Under the pieces are notes generated by a model. The model was given only the letters and a program-made list of their open reading frames with translations, was not told where the DNA came from and did not search any database. From contig CAWCUS010000006.1 of NCBI GenBank assembly GCA_963798845.1, forward strand, positions 32,001-96,000: a stretch of 64,000 nucleotides of DNA. Reading direction: 5' to 3'. Below are positions 37,266 through 48,266 of the stretch, piece by piece (position 1 is the stretch's first letter; each line of letters starts with the position of its first letter). Made by a program: the position numbers and the translations under genes. Source of the stretch: an uncultured Gemmatimonadales bacterium (GTDB lineage: Bacteria; Gemmatimonadota; Gemmatimonadetes; Longimicrobiales; RSA9).

Positions 37266-40200
37266 ATGCCACAACCTGAAACCGTGCCGGATTCGCCTCG
37301 GCCGGACGGCCCGCACGTCCGGCTGGTGGGAATCGGGGCCTCCGCGGGAGGGGTCCGGGCGCTGGGGGAGTTCTTCCGCGCCCTACCCGAGCGGCCGGGC
37401 ATGGCGTTCGTGGTGGTGATGCACCTCTCGCCCGAGCACGACAGCCAGCTCGCGGAGGTGCTCCAGAAGGATTCGAAGATCCCCGTCCGCCAGGTTCAGG
37501 GCCGCACCCGGCTCGAGCGGGATCACGTGTACGTCATTCCGCCGAACCGCAGCCTCGAGCTGACCGACGGCCATCTCGAGCTGTTCGAGTTCACCGAGCC
37601 GCGGGGGCACCGATCGCCCATCGACACCTTCTTCCGCGGGCTGGCTGCGGTCCACCCGGACGGAATCGGCATCCTGCTCTCCGGCTCGGGCACCGACGGG
37701 GTGGTCGGTCTCAAGGCGATCAAGGAGGGGGGCGGGATCATCCTGGCCCAGTCGCCGGAAGATGCCGAATACGACACGATGCCAAGGAGCGCCATCGCGA
37801 CGGGGCTGGTGGACTTCGTGCTGCCGGCGGGGAGGCTGGCCGGGAAGGTGCTGGAGATCCAATCGGCCAAGGCGGCCTGGCAGCTCCCGGACCCCGAAGG
37901 CCTTCAGGCGGATGAAGCGGAGGCGCTGCGCTCGATCCTGTCGCACCTCCAGGCCCGCACCGGCCGTGACTTCCGCGGCTACAAGAAGAGCACCGTGCTG
38001 CGACGGATCGGCCGTCGCATGCAGGTGCACGGAGCGGAGAACTTCGACCAGTACCTGGACGTGCTGCGGGCAAATCCCACCGAGCCGCGGGCGCTGCTGA
38101 AGGACCTCCTGATCAGCGTCACGACCTTCTTCCGGGATCCGGATGCGTTCGCGGCGCTCGAGAACACGGTCCTGCCTGCCCTCTTTCGTGGTGGGCAGCA
38201 TGCGCCGGAGGAGATCCGCGTGTGGGTGCCCGGCTGCGCCACGGGCGAGGAGGCCTACTCGCTGGCCATGCTCGTGGCGGAGCAGGCCGAGCGGCGGGGC
38301 GGCGGCGTGGAATTGCAGGTGTTCGCGTCGGATCTCGACGCCGATGCCCTCGCCTACGCCCGGGAAGGGCTGTACCCGGACGCCATCGCCGGCGACGTGG
38401 GCATGGATCGTCTGAGCCGCTTTTTCCGCCGAGAGGGCGCCTACTACCGGGTGCGCAACGAGCTCCGCGAGATCGTGCTCTTCGCCGAGCACGACCTGCT
38501 CCGGGACCCGCCGTTCTCGCGCCTCGACCTGCTCACCTGCCGGAACCTCCTGATCTACCTCGAGCGCGGCCTCCAGGAGCGGGTGGCGGAGGTCTTCCGC
38601 TATGCGCTCCGCGCTGGCGGGTTCCTGTTCCTGGGCAGCTCCGAGACGCCGCCGGACGACGGCGGCTTCCGGCCCGTCGACAAGCAGTACCGGATCTACC
38701 GGCGAATCGGCGCCGCGGAGCAGTCCGATCGGCTGCCGGCCATGCCCCTCCTTCCCGGGCCTCGACCGCGATCGCCAGGAGACCGGGTGCCACCCCTCTC
38801 TCCGCAGCAGGAGATCGCTGACGCCGCCATGCACCGCCAGGCCCTGGAGGCGCACGCGCCGCCGAGCGTTCTGGTGGACGCGGAGCACACCATTGTCCAT
38901 GTCTCTCCCCGCGCCCGCCGCTACCTCCAGTTCCCGGCTGGCAGCCCGTCGTCGAACCTCCTCAAGGTCGGTCGCCCGGAGCTGCGCTTCGAGCTCCGCA
39001 GCGTCCTGTACCACGCCCTGGAAAAGGAGGAGGCCGCGCGTTCCGGATGGGTGCCCGTGGAGATCGACGGCGAGGCGCGGCAGGTCCAGGTCCACGCGGC
39101 GCCCGCGCCCGTGGCCGATGACCTGCGCCTCGCCCTGGTGACGTTCCTCGAAGCGCCCGCCGAGGGGCGGGGAGAGGGAGAGGGAGAGGGAGAGGGGGAG
39201 GGGGAGGGGGAGGGGGAGGGGGACCGGGCGCGTGGGCGGGCAGAAGACGTGGCCGGCGCGTCACGGCGGCTGTCGGAGATGGAGGCGGAGCTCGAGAACT
39301 CCCGGACGCGCCTCCAGGAGATGGTGGAGACTTCGGAAACCCGTCAGGAGGAGCTTCGCGCCGCCAACGAGGAGCTCCAGTCCATCAACGAGGAATACAA
39401 GTCGACTCTGGAGGAGCTGGAGACGAGCCGGGAGGAGCTCCAATCGTCCAACGAGGAGCTTCGGACGGTGAACGAGGAGCTGAACCGGAAGGTCGCCGAG
39501 CTGGCCAACGCGAACGACGACCTCCGCAACCTCATGGCGGCGACGGAGGTGCCGACCCTGTTCGTGGACCGGTTGCTCCGCGTCCAGCGGTTCACCCCGG
39601 CGCTCCAGGACGTCTTCAACATCATGCCTGTGGACGAGGGGCGGCCGCTGGACCACCTGACCCACAAGCTCGACTACCCGCAGCTCCGCGAAGACTGCCT
39701 GAACGTGCTGAGCCGGCTCCAGCCGAAAGAGCGCGAGGTCGGCAGCGGCAGCGGCCAATCCTGGCTCGTGCGGCTCACGCCGTACCGCTCGGAGGAGGAC
39801 CGGATCGGGGGCGTGGTGATCACGTTCACCGATGTCACGCGCGTGCGGGAGGCACAGGTTTCGGTCCGCGAGAGCGAGGAGCGCTTCCGTGCGCTGGTGG
39901 AAGCGACCGCCGAGATCGTCTGGACAGCCGATCCCGAAGGCGTCGTGGTGCGGGACTCCCCCAGCTGGCGGGCGTTCACCGGGCAGGCCGTGGAGGACCG
40001 GCTGGAATGGGGCTGGCTCGACGTCGTCCACCCGGAGGAACGGGAGTCGGCCCGGGCCGCGTGGCAGCGAGCGGTCTCCGAAGGCCGTGCGCTGGACAGT
40101 GAGGTCCGCCTCTGGCACGCGCCCTCACAGAGCTGGCGGCTGACGGCGGTCCGGGCGGTTCCGGTCCTCGACTCCGACGGCCGGACCCGGGAGTGGGTGG

Positions 40201-40988
40201 GCATGAACACGGACATCACCGAGGAGCGGGAACGGCAGGAAGACCTCCGTCAGGCGAAAGCTGCCGCCGAGCGGGCGGCCGAGGTGAAGAGCCAGTTCCT
40301 GGCCACCATGAGCCACGAGCTCAGGACGCCGCTGACGGCGGTGATCGGGATGGCGGACCTCATGGAGACCGAGGTGGTCGGCCCCATGAACGAGACGCAG
40401 AAGAAACACCTCCAGCGCATGAAGAAGGCGGCCTGGCACCTGGTCAACATCATCGAGGAAGTGCTGGCCTTCTCCCGTTCGGAAGCCGGGCGAACGCAGC
40501 TCCATCGGACCACCATCGACCTCGCCGCCATCGCCAGAGAGGTCGTGGACGTGCTGGCGGTCGAAGCGGACGAGAAGGGGCTCCGGCTGAGGATCGAGGG
40601 GGCCGACCGTCCCGAGTTCCTGTTCGGCGACGGGGGCAAGGTCCGGCAGGTCGTCACCAACCTCGTCGGCAACGCCCTCAAGTTCACCGATGACGGTGAG
40701 GTCGTGGTCCGGATCGAGCTCCGGGACCGGGACGCCATCGCGCTGACGGTGGCGGACACCGGCCCCGGGATTCCGCCCGAGGTGCGAGAGGAGGTCTTCG
40801 AGCCTTTCCGGCAGGGTGACAACACCGCGACCCGTTCGAAGGGCGGCGTGGGTCTGGGACTGGCGGTGTCCCGCCGCCTCGCGCGCCTGATGGGCGGCGA
40901 CATCGAGCTGGAGAGCCTGCCGCGGGACGGCGCGACCTTCACGCTGACCCTGCCGCGCGAGCCGGACGTCGGCGGCGACCGGGAATAG
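37266..40988 (+). CDS. CheB-CheR-coiled-coil-PAS-HisKA hybrid kinase
   Basis: GIGASAGG, VVMHLS, SGSGTDG; GCATGEEAYS; EELQSINEE repeats; SHELRTPL; GVGLGL. Confidence 0.93.
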   Translation: MPQPETVPDSPRPDGPHVRLVGIGASAGGVRALGEFFRALPERPGMAFVVVMHLSPEHDSQLAEVLQKDSKIPVRQVQGRTRLERDHVYVIPPNRSLELTDGHLELFEFTEPRGHRSPIDTFFRGLAAVHPDGIGILLSGSGTDGVVGLKAIKEGGGIILAQSPEDAEYDTMPRSAIATGLVDFVLPAGRLAGKVLEIQSAKAAWQLPDPEGLQADEAEALRSILSHLQARTGRDFRGYKKSTVLRRIGRRMQVHGAENFDQYLDVLRANPTEPRALLKDLLISVTTFFRDPDAFAALENTVLPALFRGGQHAPEEIRVWVPGCATGEEAYSLAMLVAEQAERRGGGVELQVFASDLDADALAYAREGLYPDAIAGDVGMDRLSRFFRREGAYYRVRNELREIVLFAEHDLLRDPPFSRLDLLTCRNLLIYLERGLQERVAEVFRYALRAGGFLFLGSSETPPDDGGFRPVDKQYRIYRRIGAAEQSDRLPAMPLLPGPRPRSPGDRVPPLSPQQEIADAAMHRQALEAHAPPSVLVDAEHTIVHVSPRARRYLQFPAGSPSSNLLKVGRPELRFELRSVLYHALEKEEAARSGWVPVEIDGEARQVQVHAAPAPVADDLRLALVTFLEAPAEGRGEGEGEGEGEGEGEGEGDRARGRAEDVAGASRRLSEMEAELENSRTRLQEMVETSETRQEELRAANEELQSINEEYKSTLEELETSREELQSSNEELRTVNEELNRKVAELANANDDLRNLMAATEVPTLFVDRLLRVQRFTPALQDVFNIMPVDEGRPLDHLTHKLDYPQLREDCLNVLSRLQPKEREVGSGSGQSWLVRLTPYRSEEDRIGGVVITFTDVTRVREAQVSVRESEERFRALVEATAEIVWTADPEGVVVRDSPSWRAFTGQAVEDRLEWGWLDVVHPEERESARAAWQRAVSEGRALDSEVRLWHAPSQSWRLTAVRAVPVLDSDGRTREWVGMNTDITEERERQEDLRQAKAAAERAAEVKSQFLATMSHELRTPLTAVIGMADLMETEVVGPMNETQKKHLQRMKKAAWHLVNIIEEVLAFSRSEAGRTQLHRTTIDLAAIAREVVDVLAVEADEKGLRLRIEGADRPEFLFGDGGKVRQVVTNLVGNALKFTDDGEVVVRIELRDRDAIALTVADTGPGIPPEVREEVFEPFRQGDNTATRSKGGVGLGLAVSRRLARLMGGDIELESLPRDGATFTLTLPREPDVGGDRE
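39171..39218 (+). repeat. (GGAGAG)4(GGGGAG)4 microsatellite encoding (GE)8
   Basis: Read directly from the sequence; in frame within the hybrid kinase. Confidence 0.95.
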
Positions 40989-40998
40989 CCTCCGGATC

Positions 40999-41694
40999 GT
41001 GTCCACCATCACCTCCGACCTCTCGCCCGATCCGCAGCTCCAGGCACTGGCCCGCGAAGCACTGGCGCTGCTCAGAGATCATCTCCACGTCCGGCATTTC
41101 CGAAAGGGCAATCTGCTCTGGCGCGAGGGGGACACGTCCGGGATGCTGGTGTCCCTGCGCTCGGGGCGCGTGAAGATCTACCGGCGTCTGGGCGGCGATC
41201 GGGAAGCCACCCTCTTCCTCTTCGGGCCCGGCGACCTGTTCGGGTTCCTGCCGTTCATCGACGGTGAGGCGTATCCGGCCTCAGCCCGCGCCATGGACGA
41301 TGTGGAAGCGGACGTCATGGCCCGGTCCGCGCTCCTGGAAGTGCTGAGAGCGCAGCCGGAGCTGGGGATCACCCTCATCGGGCTCCTGGGCGGGCGCCTG
41401 CGTGCCTCCTTCGACCTGATTCGCTCGCTCTCGACCCCCAGCGCCCGCGTCCGGGTAGCGCGAGCGCTGCTCGAACAGATCCAGCATTCCACCTCAGGAT
41501 CGGCACACCCCCTCATCACGCTCCCCGTCTCCAACCAGGAGTTTGCCAGCGCACTGGGGATCGTGCCCGAGACTCTGTCCCGCACCCTGACCGGCCTGGT
41601 CGAGGGCGGCGTGCTGGAGCGCACAGGCTCCGGCGACTACCGGGTCCTGGACCTGGCCGGACTCACGCGCGCTTCCGAGCCTGCGGCGGAGTAG
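40999..41694 (+). CDS. Crp/Fnr family transcriptional regulator (Dnr/NnrR/HcpR-like)
   Basis: cNMP-like barrel (SGRVKIY…GPGDLFG…YPASA); HTH EFASALGIVPETLSR; no Cys. Confidence 0.88.
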   Translation: MSTITSDLSPDPQLQALAREALALLRDHLHVRHFRKGNLLWREGDTSGMLVSLRSGRVKIYRRLGGDREATLFLFGPGDLFGFLPFIDGEAYPASARAMDDVEADVMARSALLEVLRAQPELGITLIGLLGGRLRASFDLIRSLSTPSARVRVARALLEQIQHSTSGSAHPLITLPVSNQEFASALGIVPETLSRTLTGLVEGGVLERTGSGDYRVLDLAGLTRASEPAAE

Positions 41695-41934: not shown

Positions 41935-42552
41935 ATGGTGGATCCAGAGGAATATCTCGAAGCCGGACTGAAGCTGCACGGCCACAGGTGTCCGGCGATG
42001 CCCATGGGGCTGCGCGCGGCGGCCATTGCCATGAACCGGCTGGGTGTGGAGCGCTCGGGCGCCAAGACCCTGGTGGCACTGGTCGAGCTCGGCGACGGCC
42101 ACTGCGCGCATTGCTTCGGCGACGGCGTCCAGACCGTCTCGGGCTGCACGTTCGGAAAGGGCAACATACAGAAGCTGGGCTATGGCAAGTTCGGCCTCAC
42201 GCTCGTGGACAGGGAGACGGGACGCGCCGTCCGGGTCGTCCCCCGGGGAGAGGCGCAGATGCGGATGAAGCAGACTCCGTTCTTCAAGGAGTACCGGATG
42301 AAGGGGATCCCACCGACGGAAGTGCCGGAGGAAGTCGTGGACCCGCTCATCCGCAGGGTCCTGTCCGGCCCCGAGGACGAGATGTTCAAGGTGAGCGACG
42401 TCTTCACCCACGCGCTCGCGCCCCAGGAAGAGGACTTCGCCTCCTTCGTGTGCGAGCGGTGCGGTGACATGGTGGTGGAACGCTACGGCCGCGTGGTGGG
42501 AGAGGCCAAGGTGTGCATCCCCTGTCAGGAAGCCCTGCTGGCCGACAGGTAG
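41935..42552 (+). CDS. FmdE family protein with C-terminal DksA/TraR-type C4 zinc finger
   Basis: HGHRCPAMPMG, CFGDGVQTVSGCTFGKGN, GKFGLT, CERCGD…CIPC; GGAGGAG RBS. Confidence 0.9.
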   Translation: MVDPEEYLEAGLKLHGHRCPAMPMGLRAAAIAMNRLGVERSGAKTLVALVELGDGHCAHCFGDGVQTVSGCTFGKGNIQKLGYGKFGLTLVDRETGRAVRVVPRGEAQMRMKQTPFFKEYRMKGIPPTEVPEEVVDPLIRRVLSGPEDEMFKVSDVFTHALAPQEEDFASFVCERCGDMVVERYGRVVGEAKVCIPCQEALLADR

Positions 42553-42554
42553 CC

Positions 42555-43304
42555 ATGCTCCACGCATCGATCGCGGTGGCGTTTGTCGGCGCGTCGTTCC
42601 TGTTCTCGATGCTCGGCCTGGGCGGCGCGCTCGTCTACGTCCCCGTCCTGACGTGGGCCGGCTTCCCGGTCAGGGAGGTGGCCATTCCGCTGGCCCTCCT
42701 GCTCAACGGGCTCACCACCCTGATCGCGCTCGGGTCCTATGTCCACGCCAGGCTGGTCGACTGGAGGGGTGGACTCGGCATGACGGTTGGGGCATTCGCC
42801 TTCGCGCCGGTCGGGGCGTTCGCGTCCCGGGTCGTGCCCGTACGATTCCTGCTCGGCCTCTTCGCCATCGCCGTGCTGGTGGCGGCTTTCCGGATGCTCG
42901 CCATGTCCAGGACCCCCGAGCCCGGAGATCTCATGCCGTTGCGGAGGAGGCTGATCATCGGATCCGCCGTCGGGGTCTTCGCCGGGTTCATGGCGGGACT
43001 CCTCGGGATCGGCGGCGGCTTCATCATGTCTCCCCTTCTCATGTGGATGGGGTACGAGACGAAGCAGGCCGTGGCGACGTCTGCCCTGGCCGTGACCTTC
43101 TCGTCCTTCTCCGGGTTCGGCGGACACATCGCACAGGGGCACCTCGACCTGACGCTGACGGCGCTGCTGGCCTTCGCAGTGCTGATGGGCGCTTTCGCGG
43201 GAAGCCGATTCATGGTGACGAAGGCGAAATCGGCGAGGGTCAAGCAGGTGTTCGCCCTCGTGCTCTTCGCCATCGCCGCCAAGCTGCTGGTGGGGGTGCT
43301 CTGA
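42555..43304 (+). CDS. sulfite exporter TauE/SafE family permease
   Basis: SMLGLGGALVYVP and GLLGIGGGFIMSP duplicated motifs; 8 TM helices. Confidence 0.9.
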   Translation: MLHASIAVAFVGASFLFSMLGLGGALVYVPVLTWAGFPVREVAIPLALLLNGLTTLIALGSYVHARLVDWRGGLGMTVGAFAFAPVGAFASRVVPVRFLLGLFAIAVLVAAFRMLAMSRTPEPGDLMPLRRRLIIGSAVGVFAGFMAGLLGIGGGFIMSPLLMWMGYETKQAVATSALAVTFSSFSGFGGHIAQGHLDLTLTALLAFAVLMGAFAGSRFMVTKAKSARVKQVFALVLFAIAAKLLVGVL

Positions 43305-43370: not shown

Positions 43371-44486
43371 TCAGGACCCCGGCCTCAAGCCTGCCGGGAC
43401 GACGCAGTTCGACACCGACGCCAGCTCCGCCTCCGCCGCCGGGAAGTACTTCCGCCTCCACCACAACGCCACGTTGACCAGACCGATCAGGACCGGCACT
43501 TCCACGAGCGGGCCGATCACGGCCGCGAACGCGGCCCCGTGTGCGATCCCGAACGTGCCCACCGCCACCGCGATGGCCAGCTCGAAGTTGTTCGACGCGG
43601 CCGTGAACGACAGCGTGGCCGTCTGCGGGTACGTGGCGCCCACCGCCCGGCTCATGAAGAAGGTGACGGCGAACATGACCAGGAAATAGACGAGCAGCGG
43701 GATCGCCACCAGGACCACCTGCGACGGCTGCTCGACGATCGCGCGCCCCTGGATCGAGAACATCACCACGATCGTGAACAGCAGCGCCACCAGCGTTAGC
43801 GGGCTGATCTTCGGGACGAACCGCTCGTGGTACCACGTCTTTCCCCTGGCCTTCACCAGCGCGAATCGCGTCAGCATGCCGGCCAGGAACGGGATGCCGA
43901 GGTAGACGAACACGCTCTCCGCGATGCGCCCCATGGTGATGTCCACCACCGTCCGCTCGAGCCCCAGCCACCCCGGAACGACGGTGATGAAGGCCCACGC
44001 ATAGACCGAGTAGAACAGCACCTGGAAGATCGAGTTGAAGGCGACGAGCCCCGCGGCGTACTCGTTGTCCCCCTCCGCCAGCTCGTTCCAGACGATCACC
44101 ATGGCGATGCAGCGCGCCAGCCCGATCAGGATCAGGCCGACCATCAGCTCCGGGTGGTGGCGCAGGAAGAGCACGGCCAGGCCGAACATGAGCAGCGGAC
44201 CGATGATCCAGTTCTGGACCAGCGAAAGGCCCAGCACCTTCCAGTCCCGGAAGACGTCGCCGAGCTCCTCGTAGCGCACCTTGGCAAGCGGCGGGTACAT
44301 CATGAGGATGAGCCCCGCGGCGATGGGGATCGAGGTCGTCCCGACCTGCGTCGCCTGGTTGATCGCCGTCACCGGCTCAGGCCACAGGTATCCGAGCCCC
44401 ACGCCCACCCCCATCGCCAGGCCGATCCATGCCGTCAGGTACCGGTCCAGGAACGACATCCGCCGCCCGACACCGCCCGCGGTCAT
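43371..44486 (-). CDS. acr3: ACR3 arsenite efflux transporter
   Basis: [59 protein letters not shown] coupling. Confidence 0.95.
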
Positions 44487-45256
44487 CCGGTGTCCGCCGT
44501 CCGCGTGGTCGGCATCCCGCCCGTCTCCAGGTACACGGCGAACTCGTCCGGAAGCTCGCTCTCGCCGATCGCCGCCATCGTCCGCTCCAGCTCGTACTCG
44601 ACGCGGACGAACTCGACCCCCACCCGTTCGCCGTCCAGCTCCACCAGCACGTAGCCCGCGCGCCAGTCGCCGTCCTTCGGCCGCCCGACGGACCCCGTGT
44701 TCACGAGATGGATCCCGTCCACCGTCCGCGTCCATGGCCTGTGCGTGTGACCGAACGCCACCACATCGCCCGCCCTGGCGCCGAGCTGCTCCGCCATCTG
44801 CCGGCAGAACCTGTCCGAACGATCTTCGGTCCAGTAGACCGTGTTCAGCACCGGGTTGCCGTGCACCAGGATGAGCCGGGGCCCGGCGACATGGCCGCCC
44901 AGCGGCCGGATGTCGATGCGGAACGGCAGGCTCCCCAGCCAGCGCTTCGTACCGGCGGTCACGTTGGCGCGAGTCCACGCGTAGCTGAGATGGCTCAGCG
45001 CCTCCTGCCGCGCGTCTTCATACCTGCATCCGCAGTGCTCGTAGTCGGTGGCCGTGGTCGAGTCGTAGTTCCCGGCCACGCCGGGGATGGCCCGATCGCG
45101 GAGCGCCGCCACCACCTCCTCCGGCCATGGCGCGTATCCCACCAGGTCGCCGAGGTGGTAGACGCCGGTCAGGTCGCTCCGGGAGTCAATGTCGGCCAGC
45201 ACCGCCTCCAGGGCGGGCAGGTTCCCGTGGATGTCGCTGATGAGCGCGTACTTCAT
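44483..45256 (-). CDS. ars-operon metallophosphoesterase (YfcE/MJ0912-like)
   Basis: SDIHGN, LGDLVGY, GNYD, VHGNP, GHTH, NTGSVG; coupled by ATGA to both neighbours. Confidence 0.9.
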
Positions 45257-45768
45257 GGCGCACCTCGCAGTGTCGTCGCCCGGCCGCTGCCGGGCACCGG
45301 ATCGAGGACCATCGCGACCGCCGAAGCCGGGCACGCTTCCCGGAACTCCACGGACTGCTGAACGTCCGGCGGTGCCGCGCTTCGTTCGATCCGACGGAAG
45401 CCGAACCGGGGGAAGTACTCCTCCGCCGTGGTCGTCAGGAGGTACAGGCGACGGAGCCCCCCCTCGCGCGCACCCGCCAGAGCCCTTCTCGTCAGCTCGC
45501 CGCCCAGGCCGGTCCCCCGACGCCCCGCCACCACCGCCACGGAGCGCAGCACCCCGTCCCGGCCGTGTGTCTCGACCCCCGCGACGCCCAGCAGCGCCTC
45601 GCCCTCCTCCGCCACGACGAAACCGGGCAGGTGCTCGGCCACCCCCGCCCCAGGCAAGCTGGCACCCTCGAGGAGCCCCAGGACCGCCGGGAGGTCAGAA
45701 TCCCTCGCCGGCCGGAGCACCACCCCGTCCGACTCGCCCGGCGTCGCTCTCGCCACAGTCTCAGCCAC
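45253..45768 (-). CDS. arsN2: arsenic-resistance GNAT N-acetyltransferase, ArsN2-like
   Basis: LRSVAV…RGTGLG, LYLLTTTAEEYF…GF, EFREACPASA; GTG start overlapping the arsM stop. Confidence 0.85.
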   Translation of the reverse strand: MAETVARATPGESDGVVLRPARDSDLPAVLGLLEGASLPGAGVAEHLPGFVVAEEGEALLGVAGVETHGRDGVLRSVAVVAGRRGTGLGGELTRRALAGAREGGLRRLYLLTTTAEEYFPRFGFRRIERSAAPPDVQQSVEFREACPASAVAMVLDPVPGSGRATTLRGAP

Positions 45769-46675
45769 AGCAGCCGGGCCCGCAGCAGGGCTCCTCCACG
45801 GCGGCCACGGCGGCTCCCGCCGGCGACGGCTCAGCGGCCGCCGCCGGTTTCCTGGCCCGCACGAACGCCGACAGGATCCGCCCGCGCACCGCCTCCGCCA
45901 TGGCGCCCACATCCAAACCCGCCTCCTCCAGGAACGAGCGCGCATCCTCCGGCTCGTACACCCGCGTCGGCTCCAGCGAAGGAGCCTCGAACCCGACATC
46001 CCGGAGCAGCTTTTCGAACTCGTCCATGTCCAGCGCCCCCGCGACACAGCCGACCCACAGCGCCATGCTCTTCCGCACCTCCGCCGGGATCTCCCCACGC
46101 GTCACCACGTCCGACACCGCGAAGCGGCCGCCCGGCTTCAGCACCCGGTATGCCTCGCCCAGGACCTTCCGCTTGTCCGCCGACAGGTTGATCACGCAGT
46201 TGCTGATGATCACGTCCACCGACGCGTCCGGCAGCGGGATGGTCTCGATGTCGCCCCTCAGGAACTCCACGTTCGTCGCCCCCGCCTCCGCCGCGTTCCG
46301 CCGCGCCAGCGCCAGCATCTCGTCCGTCATGTCCAGCCCGTACGCTCTCCCCGTCGGGCCCACCCGCTTCGCGCTCAGCAGGACGTCGATTCCACCCCCG
46401 CTCCCCAGGTCGAGCACCACCTCTCCCGCCTTCAGCTCCGCCAGCGCCGTCGGATTCCCGCACCCCAGTGATGCCAGCACAGCCGCTTCCGGCAGCGACG
46501 AAGCCGTCACCGCGTCGTACAGGTCTCGCGTGATCGGGTCCCTGAACCCCCCGTCCGCCTTCGTCTCCCCGCACCCGCACTTCGTCCCGCAGCACGTCGA
46601 TGGCTCGCCGCTCACCACCCGCAGCGCCGCCTCCCCGTACTTCTGCCGCACCACCGACTTCACGTCCCCGCTCAT
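45761..46675 (-). CDS. arsM: arsenite S-adenosylmethionine methyltransferase
   Basis: SLGCGNP, VLDLGSGGGID, IISNCVINLS, LWVGCVAG; Cys-rich termini. Confidence 0.95.
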   Translation of the reverse strand: MSGDVKSVVRQKYGEAALRVVSGEPSTCCGTKCGCGETKADGGFRDPITRDLYDAVTASSLPEAAVLASLGCGNPTALAELKAGEVVLDLGSGGGIDVLLSAKRVGPTGRAYGLDMTDEMLALARRNAAEAGATNVEFLRGDIETIPLPDASVDVIISNCVINLSADKRKVLGEAYRVLKPGGRFAVSDVVTRGEIPAEVRKSMALWVGCVAGALDMDEFEKLLRDVGFEAPSLEPTRVYEPEDARSFLEEAGLDVGAMAEAVRGRILSAFVRARKPAAAAEPSPAGAAVAAVEEPCCGPGCCG

Positions 46676-46756: not shown

Positions 46757-47086
46757 TCAGCCACAGCAGTCCCCACGCCGCGCCACCGGCAGCCAACCCG
46801 ACTCCGGCTTCACCTCGCCCAGGAACGACCTCATCTCCTCCAGCGCCTCCGGGACGAGTGAATAGTACACCCACCGGCCGTCCCGCCGGTCCGACACCAC
46901 CCCGGCATCCTTCAGCTTCTTCAGGTGGAAGGACAGCCGCGACTGTGCCGCCCCCATCTCGTCCTGGAGCTCACAAACGCACCGCTCTCCCCCGGTCAGC
47001 AGCTGGATCACCCTGAACCGGGTCTCCTCCGCCACGGCCTGGAAGCGCTGCAGCAGCGCCTCGTTCTGCACGGTCTGGTTCGTCAT
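46757..47086 (-). CDS. arsR: ArsR/SmtB transcriptional repressor
   Basis: GERCVCEL As-binding box, QSRLSFHLKKLKDAG HTH, RDGRWVYY, C-terminal CCG. Confidence 0.93.
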   Translation of the reverse strand: MTNQTVQNEALLQRFQAVAEETRFRVIQLLTGGERCVCELQDEMGAAQSRLSFHLKKLKDAGVVSDRRDGRWVYYSLVPEALEEMRSFLGEVKPESGWLPVARRGDCCG

Positions 47087-47092
47087 GGCCCA

Positions 47093-47122
47093 ACGATACA
47101 TCAACATCCATAGATACGTCAA
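47093..47122 (-). promoter_or_regulatory. arsR promoter with embedded operator
   Basis: Minus strand TTGACG-N18-TATCGT, 6 nt before ATG; ATCAA-CATCCA-TAGAT (47100-47115) lies in the spacer. Confidence 0.75.
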
Positions 47123-47236
47123 CCCCGCCCCAGCCGGCGGGGCGGCGTGCTTCCGCCCGGTCGCCGGCCCCGCGCCCTGCACACCATGCTCCCGGCAGGA
47201 TTCGACTGTGAGGCCGGCGTGTCCCTATCTTGTGGC

Positions 47237-47689: not shown

Positions 47690-47747
47690 TCGGCTCCCCT
47701 TCGGCACGACCACGGGAGATTCTCCCCATGACCAGAGGGATGTGACC

Positions 47748-48266
47748 ATGGCGTTTTCCAACCGTGCCACGGCGGCGATTGCGGCGCTGAGCGCCCTCGC
47801 TGCGGCGGCCGTGACGGCTGGTGCGTTCTCCTGGAACGGCACGCGCGGCGCTCCTCCTTCGGAGCGCGCCCACCAGGTCCACGAAATGGCGGGTACGGTC
47901 ATGCCGTTCGCCCTCGACCGGACCACCCACGTCTTCGAGATGACCGACAGTGGCGGGATCCAGGACGTGGTGGCGAAAGAGCCCGGAGACACCGCCACCA
48001 TCCGGCTCATCCGGCAGCACCTCATGCACGAGTCGGAGCTCTTCCGCCGCGGCAGCTTCCGCGACCCCATGGCGCTCCACGGCAGGGACATGCCGGGACT
48101 GACGGAGCTGGCCGCAGGCTCGGACAGGCTGCGCGTGGCGTTTCAGGCGCTCTCCGACGGTGCCCGGATCACCTTCAGCACGGACGATCCACTCCTTCTC
48201 ACGGCGGTGCATCGCTGGTTCGGCGCCCAGCTCTCCGACCACGCCGCGGACGCCACGTACCGATAA
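47748..48266 (+). CDS. exported hypothetical protein (VMPF…TTHVF…GG family)
   Basis: Signal or TM N-terminus; motifs MPFALDRTTHVF, DPMALHGRDMPGL, VHRWFGAQLSDH. Confidence 0.7.
   Translation: MAFSNRATAAIAALSALAAAAVTAGAFSWNGTRGAPPSERAHQVHEMAGTVMPFALDRTTHVFEMTDSGGIQDVVAKEPGDTATIRLIRQHLMHESELFRRGSFRDPMALHGRDMPGLTELAAGSDRLRVAFQALSDGARITFSTDDPLLLTAVHRWFGAQLSDHAADATYR

Follow-up and report, generated by a model that had tools for sequence, protein, structure and literature searches.

A Car1-like metallophosphoesterase as putative arsenate reductase in an ars operon of Gemmatimonadota

How might a bacterium that carries an arsenic-resistance (ars) operon and no recognisable ArsC deal with arsenate? 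The question is raised by a stretch of 64,000 nucleotides from an uncultured Gemmatimonadales bacterium of the phylum Gemmatimonadota (assembly GCA_963798845.1, contig CAWCUS010000006.1, positions 32,001 to 96,000), which we refer to at its full length as the window. In the window, five minus-strand genes form an operon in the order arsR-arsM-arsN2-MPE-acr3, the fourth of which (MPE, metallophosphoesterase) encodes P0001, a protein of 257 amino acids (aa). A first-pass annotation, made from the sequence alone, had picked out this gene as a candidate new arsenic enzyme, pointing to a tyrosine in place of the canonical GNH histidine and to an HCGC motif that follows it. On the strength of its sequence we consider it likely that the gene, here called car1-like, encodes an arsenate reductase of the Car1 type, with a two-metal site and a Cys-Gly-Cys acquired in the loop after GNYD.

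Relation to Car1, motifs and predicted fold

The comparison that carries this assignment is with P0293, a protein of 259 aa which was met in a search seeded with an Adhaeribacter homologue and bears the NCBI name 'arsenate reductase Car1 [Rufibacter tibetensis]'. BLASTP aligns residues 1-246 of P0001 with residues 1-259 of P0293 at 43% identity (114/263; 199 bits, E 3e-68). The two proteins are of nearly the same length and have the same metal ligands, and close relatives share the ars-operon setting. The cysteines of Car1 are residues 33, 74 and 76, and its GNYD(61-64)-x9-C74-G-C76 aligns with the GNYD(62-65)-x9-C75-G-C77 of P0001. According to the passages on Car1 in a 2025 paper (PMC12124457), which cites Shen, Song, Bickel et al. 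(Mol Microbiol 2024;122:201, doi 10.1111/mmi.15289), Car1 is an As(V) reductase for whose activity Cys74 and Cys76 are essential. In the same passages an ars-operon homologue of about 40% identity, from an As(V)-methylating strain, is treated as a putative As(V) reductase, and the scheme given for that operon leads As(III) from the reductase to Acr3 or ArsM. A full-text literature search on Car1 returned no further paper beyond PMC12124457. Because Car1 carries GNYD-x9-C74-G-C76, both the tyrosine and the C-G-C are traits of a characterised enzyme, and since the Car1 kind has been in print since 2024 the enzyme type is not new. The novelty that the first-pass annotation saw in these two traits is thereby lost, and its suggestion that a metallophosphoesterase might use CxC thiols on arsenate gains the support of homology, through the 43% identity to Car1 and the aligned essential cysteines.

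There are also differences between the two proteins. Car1 belongs to another phylum and the identity is only 43%; the residue before CGC is His in P0001 and Asn in Car1; an insertion of about eight residues after residue 178 of Car1, and another near residue 208, are missing from P0001; and the gene of P0001 is coupled between arsN2 and acr3. By sequence, P0001 is a fairly distant Car1 member in another phylum, with an operon arrangement that is seen on an Adhaeribacter plasmid too.

The reading frame of P0001 is free of stops over its 257 aa. With the ATG at 45256 as first codon, the protein starts where Car1 and other homologues do; this ATG is therefore taken as the true start, and an upstream GTG at 45334 is superfluous. 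Translation confirmed the motifs described earlier, with the retained metal ligands, the placement of GNYD and HCGC (Table 1) and the interval of eight residues between D65 and H74 (nine between D65 and C75). Residue 64 is Tyr, and the histidine of the canonical GNH(D/E) is therefore absent. Further motifs are DIH at residues 8-10, GD at 36-37, VHGN at 131-134 (with H132) and GHTH at 169-172, so that the dimetal ligands D8, H10, D37, N63, H132, H170 and H172 are all present. In Pfam, P0001 matches Metallophos_2 (PF12850, 72 bits) and Metallophos (47.5 bits); only Metallophos models were matched, and neither ArsC family, PF03960 of the glutaredoxin type or TIGR02691 of the LMWP type, was among them. 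NCBIfam release 20 gave no Car1 match for P0001. It gave a marginal match to TIGR00040 (yfcE) of 58 bits against a cut-off of 56.25, split over two stretches, and the YfcE equivalog NF006988 was not reached (50.6 bits against a cut-off of 117).

An AlphaFold2 model of P0001, computed with a 40-sequence alignment as input, has a mean predicted local distance difference test (pLDDT) score of 93.5 and a predicted TM-score of 0.91. Searched against the PDB with Foldseek, the model matched 3rqz, a metallophosphoesterase of Sphaerobacter thermophilus, at E 1e-20. With TM-scores normalised by query length, 3qfm (SapH, an Ap4A hydrolase/phosphodiesterase) scored 0.78, the Pyrococcus structures 1nnw and 2gju 0.79, and 1su1 (YfcE), a distant structural match, 0.48. 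As judged from sequence and model together, P0001 is a protein of the calcineurin-like fold with a complete set of binuclear metal ligands. The C-G-C is predicted to lie in a loop of residues 71-81 flanked by helices 63-70 and 82-97, where the pLDDT dips to 88.

From these features we infer the chemistry, the reductant and the role in vivo as follows. By homology to Car1, arsenate, a phosphate analogue, would bind at the dimetal centre and be attacked there by one cysteine of the C-G-C, presumably Cys75. The second, Cys77, would resolve the intermediate, so that As(III) is released and a Cys75-Cys77 disulfide is left, which a cellular thiol reductase system would reduce again. Acr3 could then export the As(III), or ArsM methylate it; the genes of both lie in this ArsR-controlled operon. 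In the case of Car1 of R. tibetensis, re-reduction is reportedly by thioredoxin, and the Car1 study reportedly also deals with nickel and with the order in which the cysteines attack.

Conservation of the cysteine pair and of the tyrosine

Sequence comparison identifies the C-x-C, and not the tyrosine, as the specific signature of the Car1-like group. In an alignment of 40 sequences (mean column identity 34%), C75, G76 and C77 are invariant together with D37 and N63, and D8, H10, Y64, H132, H170 and H172 are each conserved at 90% or more. The full GNYD-x9-CGC is found in 120/120 best matches of P0001, in 119 of the 120 best matches of the Adhaeribacter homologue (the lone exception has GNYE) and in 78 of the 80 genome loci described below, with CMC in the other two. 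Recurrence on this scale goes far past anything that chance would give. Conservation of the CGC, which the first-pass annotation had wished to see checked by aligning homologues, is thus borne out. Of its HCGC motif the C-G-C part stands and the histidine does not, as the column of His74 is variable (D/K/H/E and others) and the conserved element is x-C-G-C.

The tyrosine has a wider distribution. Among 108 representatives of at least 220 aa from a library clustered at 50% identity, Tyr is the commonest residue at the GNxD position (74/108), and a downstream CxC is present in 48, 44 of them with Tyr. The 74 Tyr representatives also include 26 without a cysteine in the scanned region and four with a single one. 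Those cysteine-less GNYD relatives that were checked have lysine-rich loops and are fused to CHAD or to Ppx-GppA-III/HD, in polyphosphate-type contexts; a cluster look-up of the nearest cysteine-less relatives gave no informative names. Since cysteine-less relatives carry it, the tyrosine is older and wider than the arsenic function, and GNYD as a marker of arsenic enzymes is ruled out by these relatives (26 of the 74 with Tyr) and by the CHAD and Ppx-GppA-III/HD fusions.

Much like P0001, several larger proteins contain a CxC-bearing Car1-like domain. The metagenomic protein P0039 (416 aa) joins it to an N-terminal ArsN2-like GNAT domain, in P0198 (413 aa) DUF2703 lies at the N-terminus and the Car1-like domain has CKC, and P0241 (468 aa) combines a CMC-bearing domain with a C-terminal MIP channel. 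In a quick tree of 91 rows, whose backbone is poorly resolved, P0001 falls in a well-supported set of 12 rows (99*) with a Rubrobacter protein and Gemmatimonadota representatives; the Hymenobacteraceae and the Paraclostridium proteins form groups apart from it. A second class of relatives, about 32-35% identical to P0001, occurs in seven Gemmatimonadota genomes (G059, G077, G047, G056, G080, G098 and G038).

Arsenic context and the weighing of alternatives

The host genome is 96% complete in six contigs. It contains no PF03960 ArsC match, and an ArsC of the LMWP type is not recognised in it, its three LMWPc genes reaching at most 40.7 bits on TIGR02691 against a cut-off of 174.3. All three do better on protein-tyrosine-phosphatase models, though there as well they stay far under the cut-offs. 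The acr3 of the operon is the only one found in the genome, in which neither an ArsB nor a second copy of the car1-like gene was found. Because there is no recognisable ArsC and a single acr3, the enzyme that supplies As(III) to Acr3 and ArsM is likely to be the product of the car1-like gene. Going by sequence, no other gene of this genome stands out as a candidate for arsenate reduction, and the car1-like gene probably provides the arsenate reductase of the bacterium's only arsenic-resistance operon, in agreement with the earlier proposal that it stands in for a missing ArsC. The position of the car1-like gene within the operon is tight, with the TGA stop of arsN2 overlapping its ATG at 45253-45256 and its own TGA overlapping the ATG of acr3 at 44483-44486, in both cases as ATGA. 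Given these overlaps on both sides, arsN2, the car1-like gene and acr3 are probably translationally coupled.

To what extent do relatives keep such company? A genome-contig scan supplied the 80 best species-level relatives. With about 30 of them from Gemmatimonadota, these loci are not independent of one another. The remainder span Acidobacteriota, Chloroflexota, Bacteroidota, Bacillota, Actinomycetota, Armatimonadota, Chlorobiota, Myxococcota, Sumerlaeota, Rhodothermales/Balneolales, Caldatribacterium, Eisenbacteria and one Rhodanobacter metagenome-assembled genome (MAG), for more than a dozen phyla overall. Within 3 kb, tblastn with the ars proteins of the window found ArsR at 47/80 loci, ArsM at 31/80, ACR3 at 27/80 (some matches at 30-37% identity only) and ArsN2 at 10/80, with at least one of the last three at 45/80. 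For the 35 loci left over, up to two called open reading frames (ORFs) per side (about 3.5 kb; 122 ORFs in total) were compared with NCBIfam. Seven of these have an arsenic-specific neighbour (ArsA, ArsD, ArsI, ArsN1 or an LMWP ArsC-like protein), three have ArsR with a MIP channel, eight an ArsR-family regulator only, six pst/phoU/pit phosphate genes only and two a MerR neighbour, one of them with MerB; at nine, several at contig ends, nothing telling lies nearby. In total, an arsenic-specific gene is present within about 3 kb at 52 of the 80 loci.

Individual operons vary in their composition. On a plasmid of Adhaeribacter radiodurans the five genes recur as arsR-arsN2-arsM-MPE-acr3, the Paraclostridium bifermentans plasmid NZ_CP094934 has arsR-MPE-arsM, and Rubrobacter radiotolerans has arsC-arsM-arsR-arsH-MPE-arsC with an MPE 68% identical to P0001. 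Distant plasmid controls from Halomicrobium (GNHD), Agrobacterium and Ralstonia (both GNHE) have neither a CxC nor ars neighbours. In the particular case of the Deinococcus sp. QL22 plasmid NZ_CP097152 (L089, 4001-4720), the order is arsR-arsC-aquaporin-arsC-MPE, and the MPE has GNTD and zero cysteines. Since this cysteine-less protein sits in an ars operon, ars linkage alone is no proof of the Car1 type, and having no cysteine the Deinococcus protein cannot operate by the thiol chemistry of Car1. How far ars linkage sets the CxC members apart is judged from a few plasmid controls together with the domain fusions.

Two smaller groups of loci have other neighbours. Six (L016, L027, L056, L067, L078 and L079) encode the full GNYD-x9-CGC and adjoin pstS/C/A/B, phoU or a pitA-like gene, with no arsenic gene among their nearest neighbours, and L081 has phosphate-uptake neighbours plus an ArsC-like gene; such neighbours may tie arsenate reduction to the route by which phosphate enters. 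In two Gemmatimonadales MAGs (L017 and L018), a MerR-family regulator stands beside the Car1-like gene in place of ars genes, and L017 has a MerB-like organomercurial lyase too.

Several observations count against a Car1-type reductase, or against too broad a version of it. An identity of 43% to Car1 is, as a sequence measure, no guarantee of the same substrate. Arsenic genes and ArsR-family genes are both missing from the surroundings of 17 of the 80 loci (the six with pst/phoU/pit, the two with MerR and the nine with nothing telling). Two annotated arsC genes lie beside the 68%-identical copy of Rubrobacter, and L006, L047 and L081 have LMWP ArsC-like neighbours. The CxC members could not be upheld as a single clean clade, as the 91-row tree, with its many open forks, implies at least four changes on starred branches and 12 overall; two of its rows without CxC, P0122 and P0130, are N-truncated fragments mis-scored by the pattern. 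Finally, we surveyed a sample of 100 other Gemmatimonadota genomes, with tallies that include the unpublished genome G055. An orthologue, defined by at least 60% identity, is present in 24 of them (one partial), and PF03960 is matched in 18 of these 24 as against 30 of the 76 without. A sub-threshold TIGR02691 match occurs in 4/24 orthologue genomes, and neither ArsC type in 5/24. Most of these PF03960 matches are weak (27-52 bits), related genomes are not independent, and the Pfam family covers proteins other than ArsC as well. The idea that Car1-like genes replace ArsC throughout the phylum is unsupported by the 18/24 and 30/76 counts.

There are three other possible explanations for the gene. 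One is that P0001 hydrolyses phosphate esters in the usual way, as a phosphodiesterase or phosphatase of, say, the Ap4A or nucleotide type (compare SapH and YfcE), and is only a passenger of the ars operon, with cysteines of structural or regulatory use. Its nearest solved folds are indeed phosphoesterases (3rqz, SapH 3qfm, YfcE 1su1), TIGR00040 gives 58 bits against a cut-off of 56.25, all hydrolytic metal ligands are retained, and the six relatives beside phosphate genes only would suit such an enzyme. We nevertheless rate it as very improbable, as the canonical GNH histidine is gone, arsenic-specific genes accompany 52/80 relatives, the gene appears coupled to acr3, and the C-G-C is invariant over more than a dozen phyla and matches the cysteines cited as essential in the Car1 passages of PMC12124457. 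The cysteine pair could also belong to a chaperone or buffer that binds As(III) and passes it to Acr3 or ArsM, with no reduction. Vicinal thiols do bind As(III), and the coupling to acr3 and the DUF2703 fusion in one member fit this role. A pure chaperone needs no intact dimetal site, yet the dimetal ligands are conserved, and the characterised homologue Car1 is cited as a reductase in those passages (PMC12124457), which leaves the chaperone with hardly any credit.

A third explanation is an organoarsenical enzyme, which would reduce pentavalent methylarsenate or its kin for ArsM or efflux, or hydrolyse arsenate esters, possibly with ArsN2. ArsM within 3 kb at 31/80 loci, ArsN2 at 10/80 and the GNAT-MPE fusion P0039 could be read in this way, and the ArsC-like genes in some operons hint at a non-redundant role. 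Direct evidence for such an enzyme was not found, many members occur in plain arsR-MPE-acr3 settings without ArsM, and the Car1 passages of PMC12124457 cite that enzyme for inorganic As(V). We would give this explanation a slim chance. For the hydrolysis of arseno-esters or methylarsenicals, which the first-pass annotation had named as an option, we found nothing that points to it. One further hypothesis could be attributed to the family as a whole, namely that it does more than replace ArsC, through a phosphate-route 'proofreading' of incoming arsenate or through the processing, with ArsN2, of some arsenical other than plain arsenate. We considered this because of the arsN2/acr3 coupling, the ArsN2-like GNAT fusion, the ArsC-like genes kept nearby and the 6/80 loci with pst/phoU/pit only, and regard it as an outside possibility. 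A Car1-type arsenate reductase is the explanation that we favour.

Table 1. The ars operon of the window, with the motifs of the car1-like gene
Feature	Coordinates	Strand	Description
acr3	43371..44486	-	Arsenite efflux permease; TIGR00832 441.7 bits (cut-off 282.8)
car1-like gene	44483..45256	-	257-aa protein of the metallophosphoesterase fold (P0001); putative thiol-dependent arsenate reductase
H74-C75-G76-C77	45026..45037	-	C-G-C is the family signature, aligned with Car1 Cys74-Gly-Cys76
GNYD (G62-N63-Y64-D65)	45062..45073	-	Asn63 is a metal ligand; Tyr64 in the place of the canonical GNH histidine
arsN2	45253..45768 (ORF; TGA end at 45253)	-	GNAT N-acetyltransferase; NF040501 148 bits (cut-off 125)
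arsM	45761..46675	-	Arsenite S-adenosylmethionine methyltransferase; NF008823 350.7 bits (cut-off 263)
arsR	46757..47182	-	HTH_5 52 bits, NF033788 95 bits; ORF as listed, start probably further in

The ArsR of the window has a CVC motif within 'ERCVCEL' and a C-terminal CC. Its gene adjoins a divergent DUF188 (YaiI) gene, just past which lies an ORF of 174 aa (47742-48266, plus strand) whose N-terminus resembles a signal peptide and which matches no Pfam family at E <= 0.001. Convergent with acr3 is a plus-strand pair consisting of an FmdE-domain protein with a C-terminal DksA/TraR-type zinc finger (41935-42552) and a TauE/SafE-family permease (42513-43304), whose start the former overlaps; the pair (41935-43304) lies downstream of a Crp/Fnr-type regulator (40999-41694). 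Further away, a plus-strand ORF of 1240 aa (37266-40988) has a Gly-Glu dipeptide run (GEGEGEGEGEGEGEGEG) in a linker at about 39100-39160 and a histidine-kinase-like end. Judged by eye only, it resembles a CheR/CheB-like chemotaxis methyltransferase/methylesterase combined with a sensor kinase.

Meaning of the assignment and comparison with known systems

A Car1-type reductase would account for the handling of arsenate in a Gemmatimonadota bacterium that has an ars operon but whose genome shows no recognisable ArsC. The assignment also exposes a gap in annotation, in that Car1-like genes are carried as generic phosphoesterases. Apart from Car1 itself, the named best matches and the annotated plasmid matches read 'metallophosphoesterase family protein', 'YfcE family phosphodiesterase' or similar, and many matches are nameless. 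The family appears large and widespread, each of two word-index searches returning at least 8,000 candidates and the best 80 coming from more than a dozen phyla. Where ArsC and Arr genes alone are counted, surveys of the arsenic cycle probably overlook potential for arsenate reduction, above all in Gemmatimonadota, Bacteroidota, Chloroflexota and Bacillota of soil. Further interest lies in this annotation gap, in the pst/phoU-linked members, in the fusions, and in the pairing with ArsN2 (coupled here, within 3 kb at 10/80 loci and fused in P0039), for which we saw nothing that would explain it.

Among other systems, the closest in kind is Orf1 of Paraclostridium dentum IIB4 and Tepidibacter petrolearius, which, in the passages of PMC12124457 that deal with it, the authors regard as a putative As(V) reductase. 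We made the comparison through the relative on the P. bifermentans plasmid NZ_CP094934, likewise an ars-operon metallophosphoesterase with Cys74/Cys76, adjoining arsR and arsM. It differs from P0001 in its gene order, arsR-MPE-arsM, and in sequence, with an identity of 36% in the multiple alignment and of about 32-33% by tblastn. Deinococcus also has a Metallophos-fold gene within an ars operon, described as an 'MPase' in D. indicus DR1 (in the relevant part of PMC9807832) and found on the plasmid of Deinococcus sp. QL22. The QL22 protein is about 30% identical to P0001, and it departs from it in having GNTD and no cysteine and in standing beside two ArsC genes.

The closest solved sequences, 3rqz, 1nnw/2gju and 3qfm, share the same two-domain-like fold (query-normalised TM 0.72-0.79), and the GN-H position is Tyr in the Pyrococcus proteins 1nnw/2gju as well (GKYD). 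In contrast to P0001, none of the three whose alignments were inspected (3rqz, 2gju and 1nnw) has a CxC aligned with C75-G-C77, 3rqz has GNHD, and the PDB titles of all four make no mention of arsenic. ArsC of the LMWP family (pI258/B. subtilis type, TIGR02691) is an enzyme of unrelated fold with no sequence similarity to P0001, thioredoxin-coupled and without a metal site, which works through a three-cysteine cascade. It resembles the reductase that we propose here in that a phosphatase scaffold was recruited for thiol-based arsenate reduction, and in being found in ars operons.

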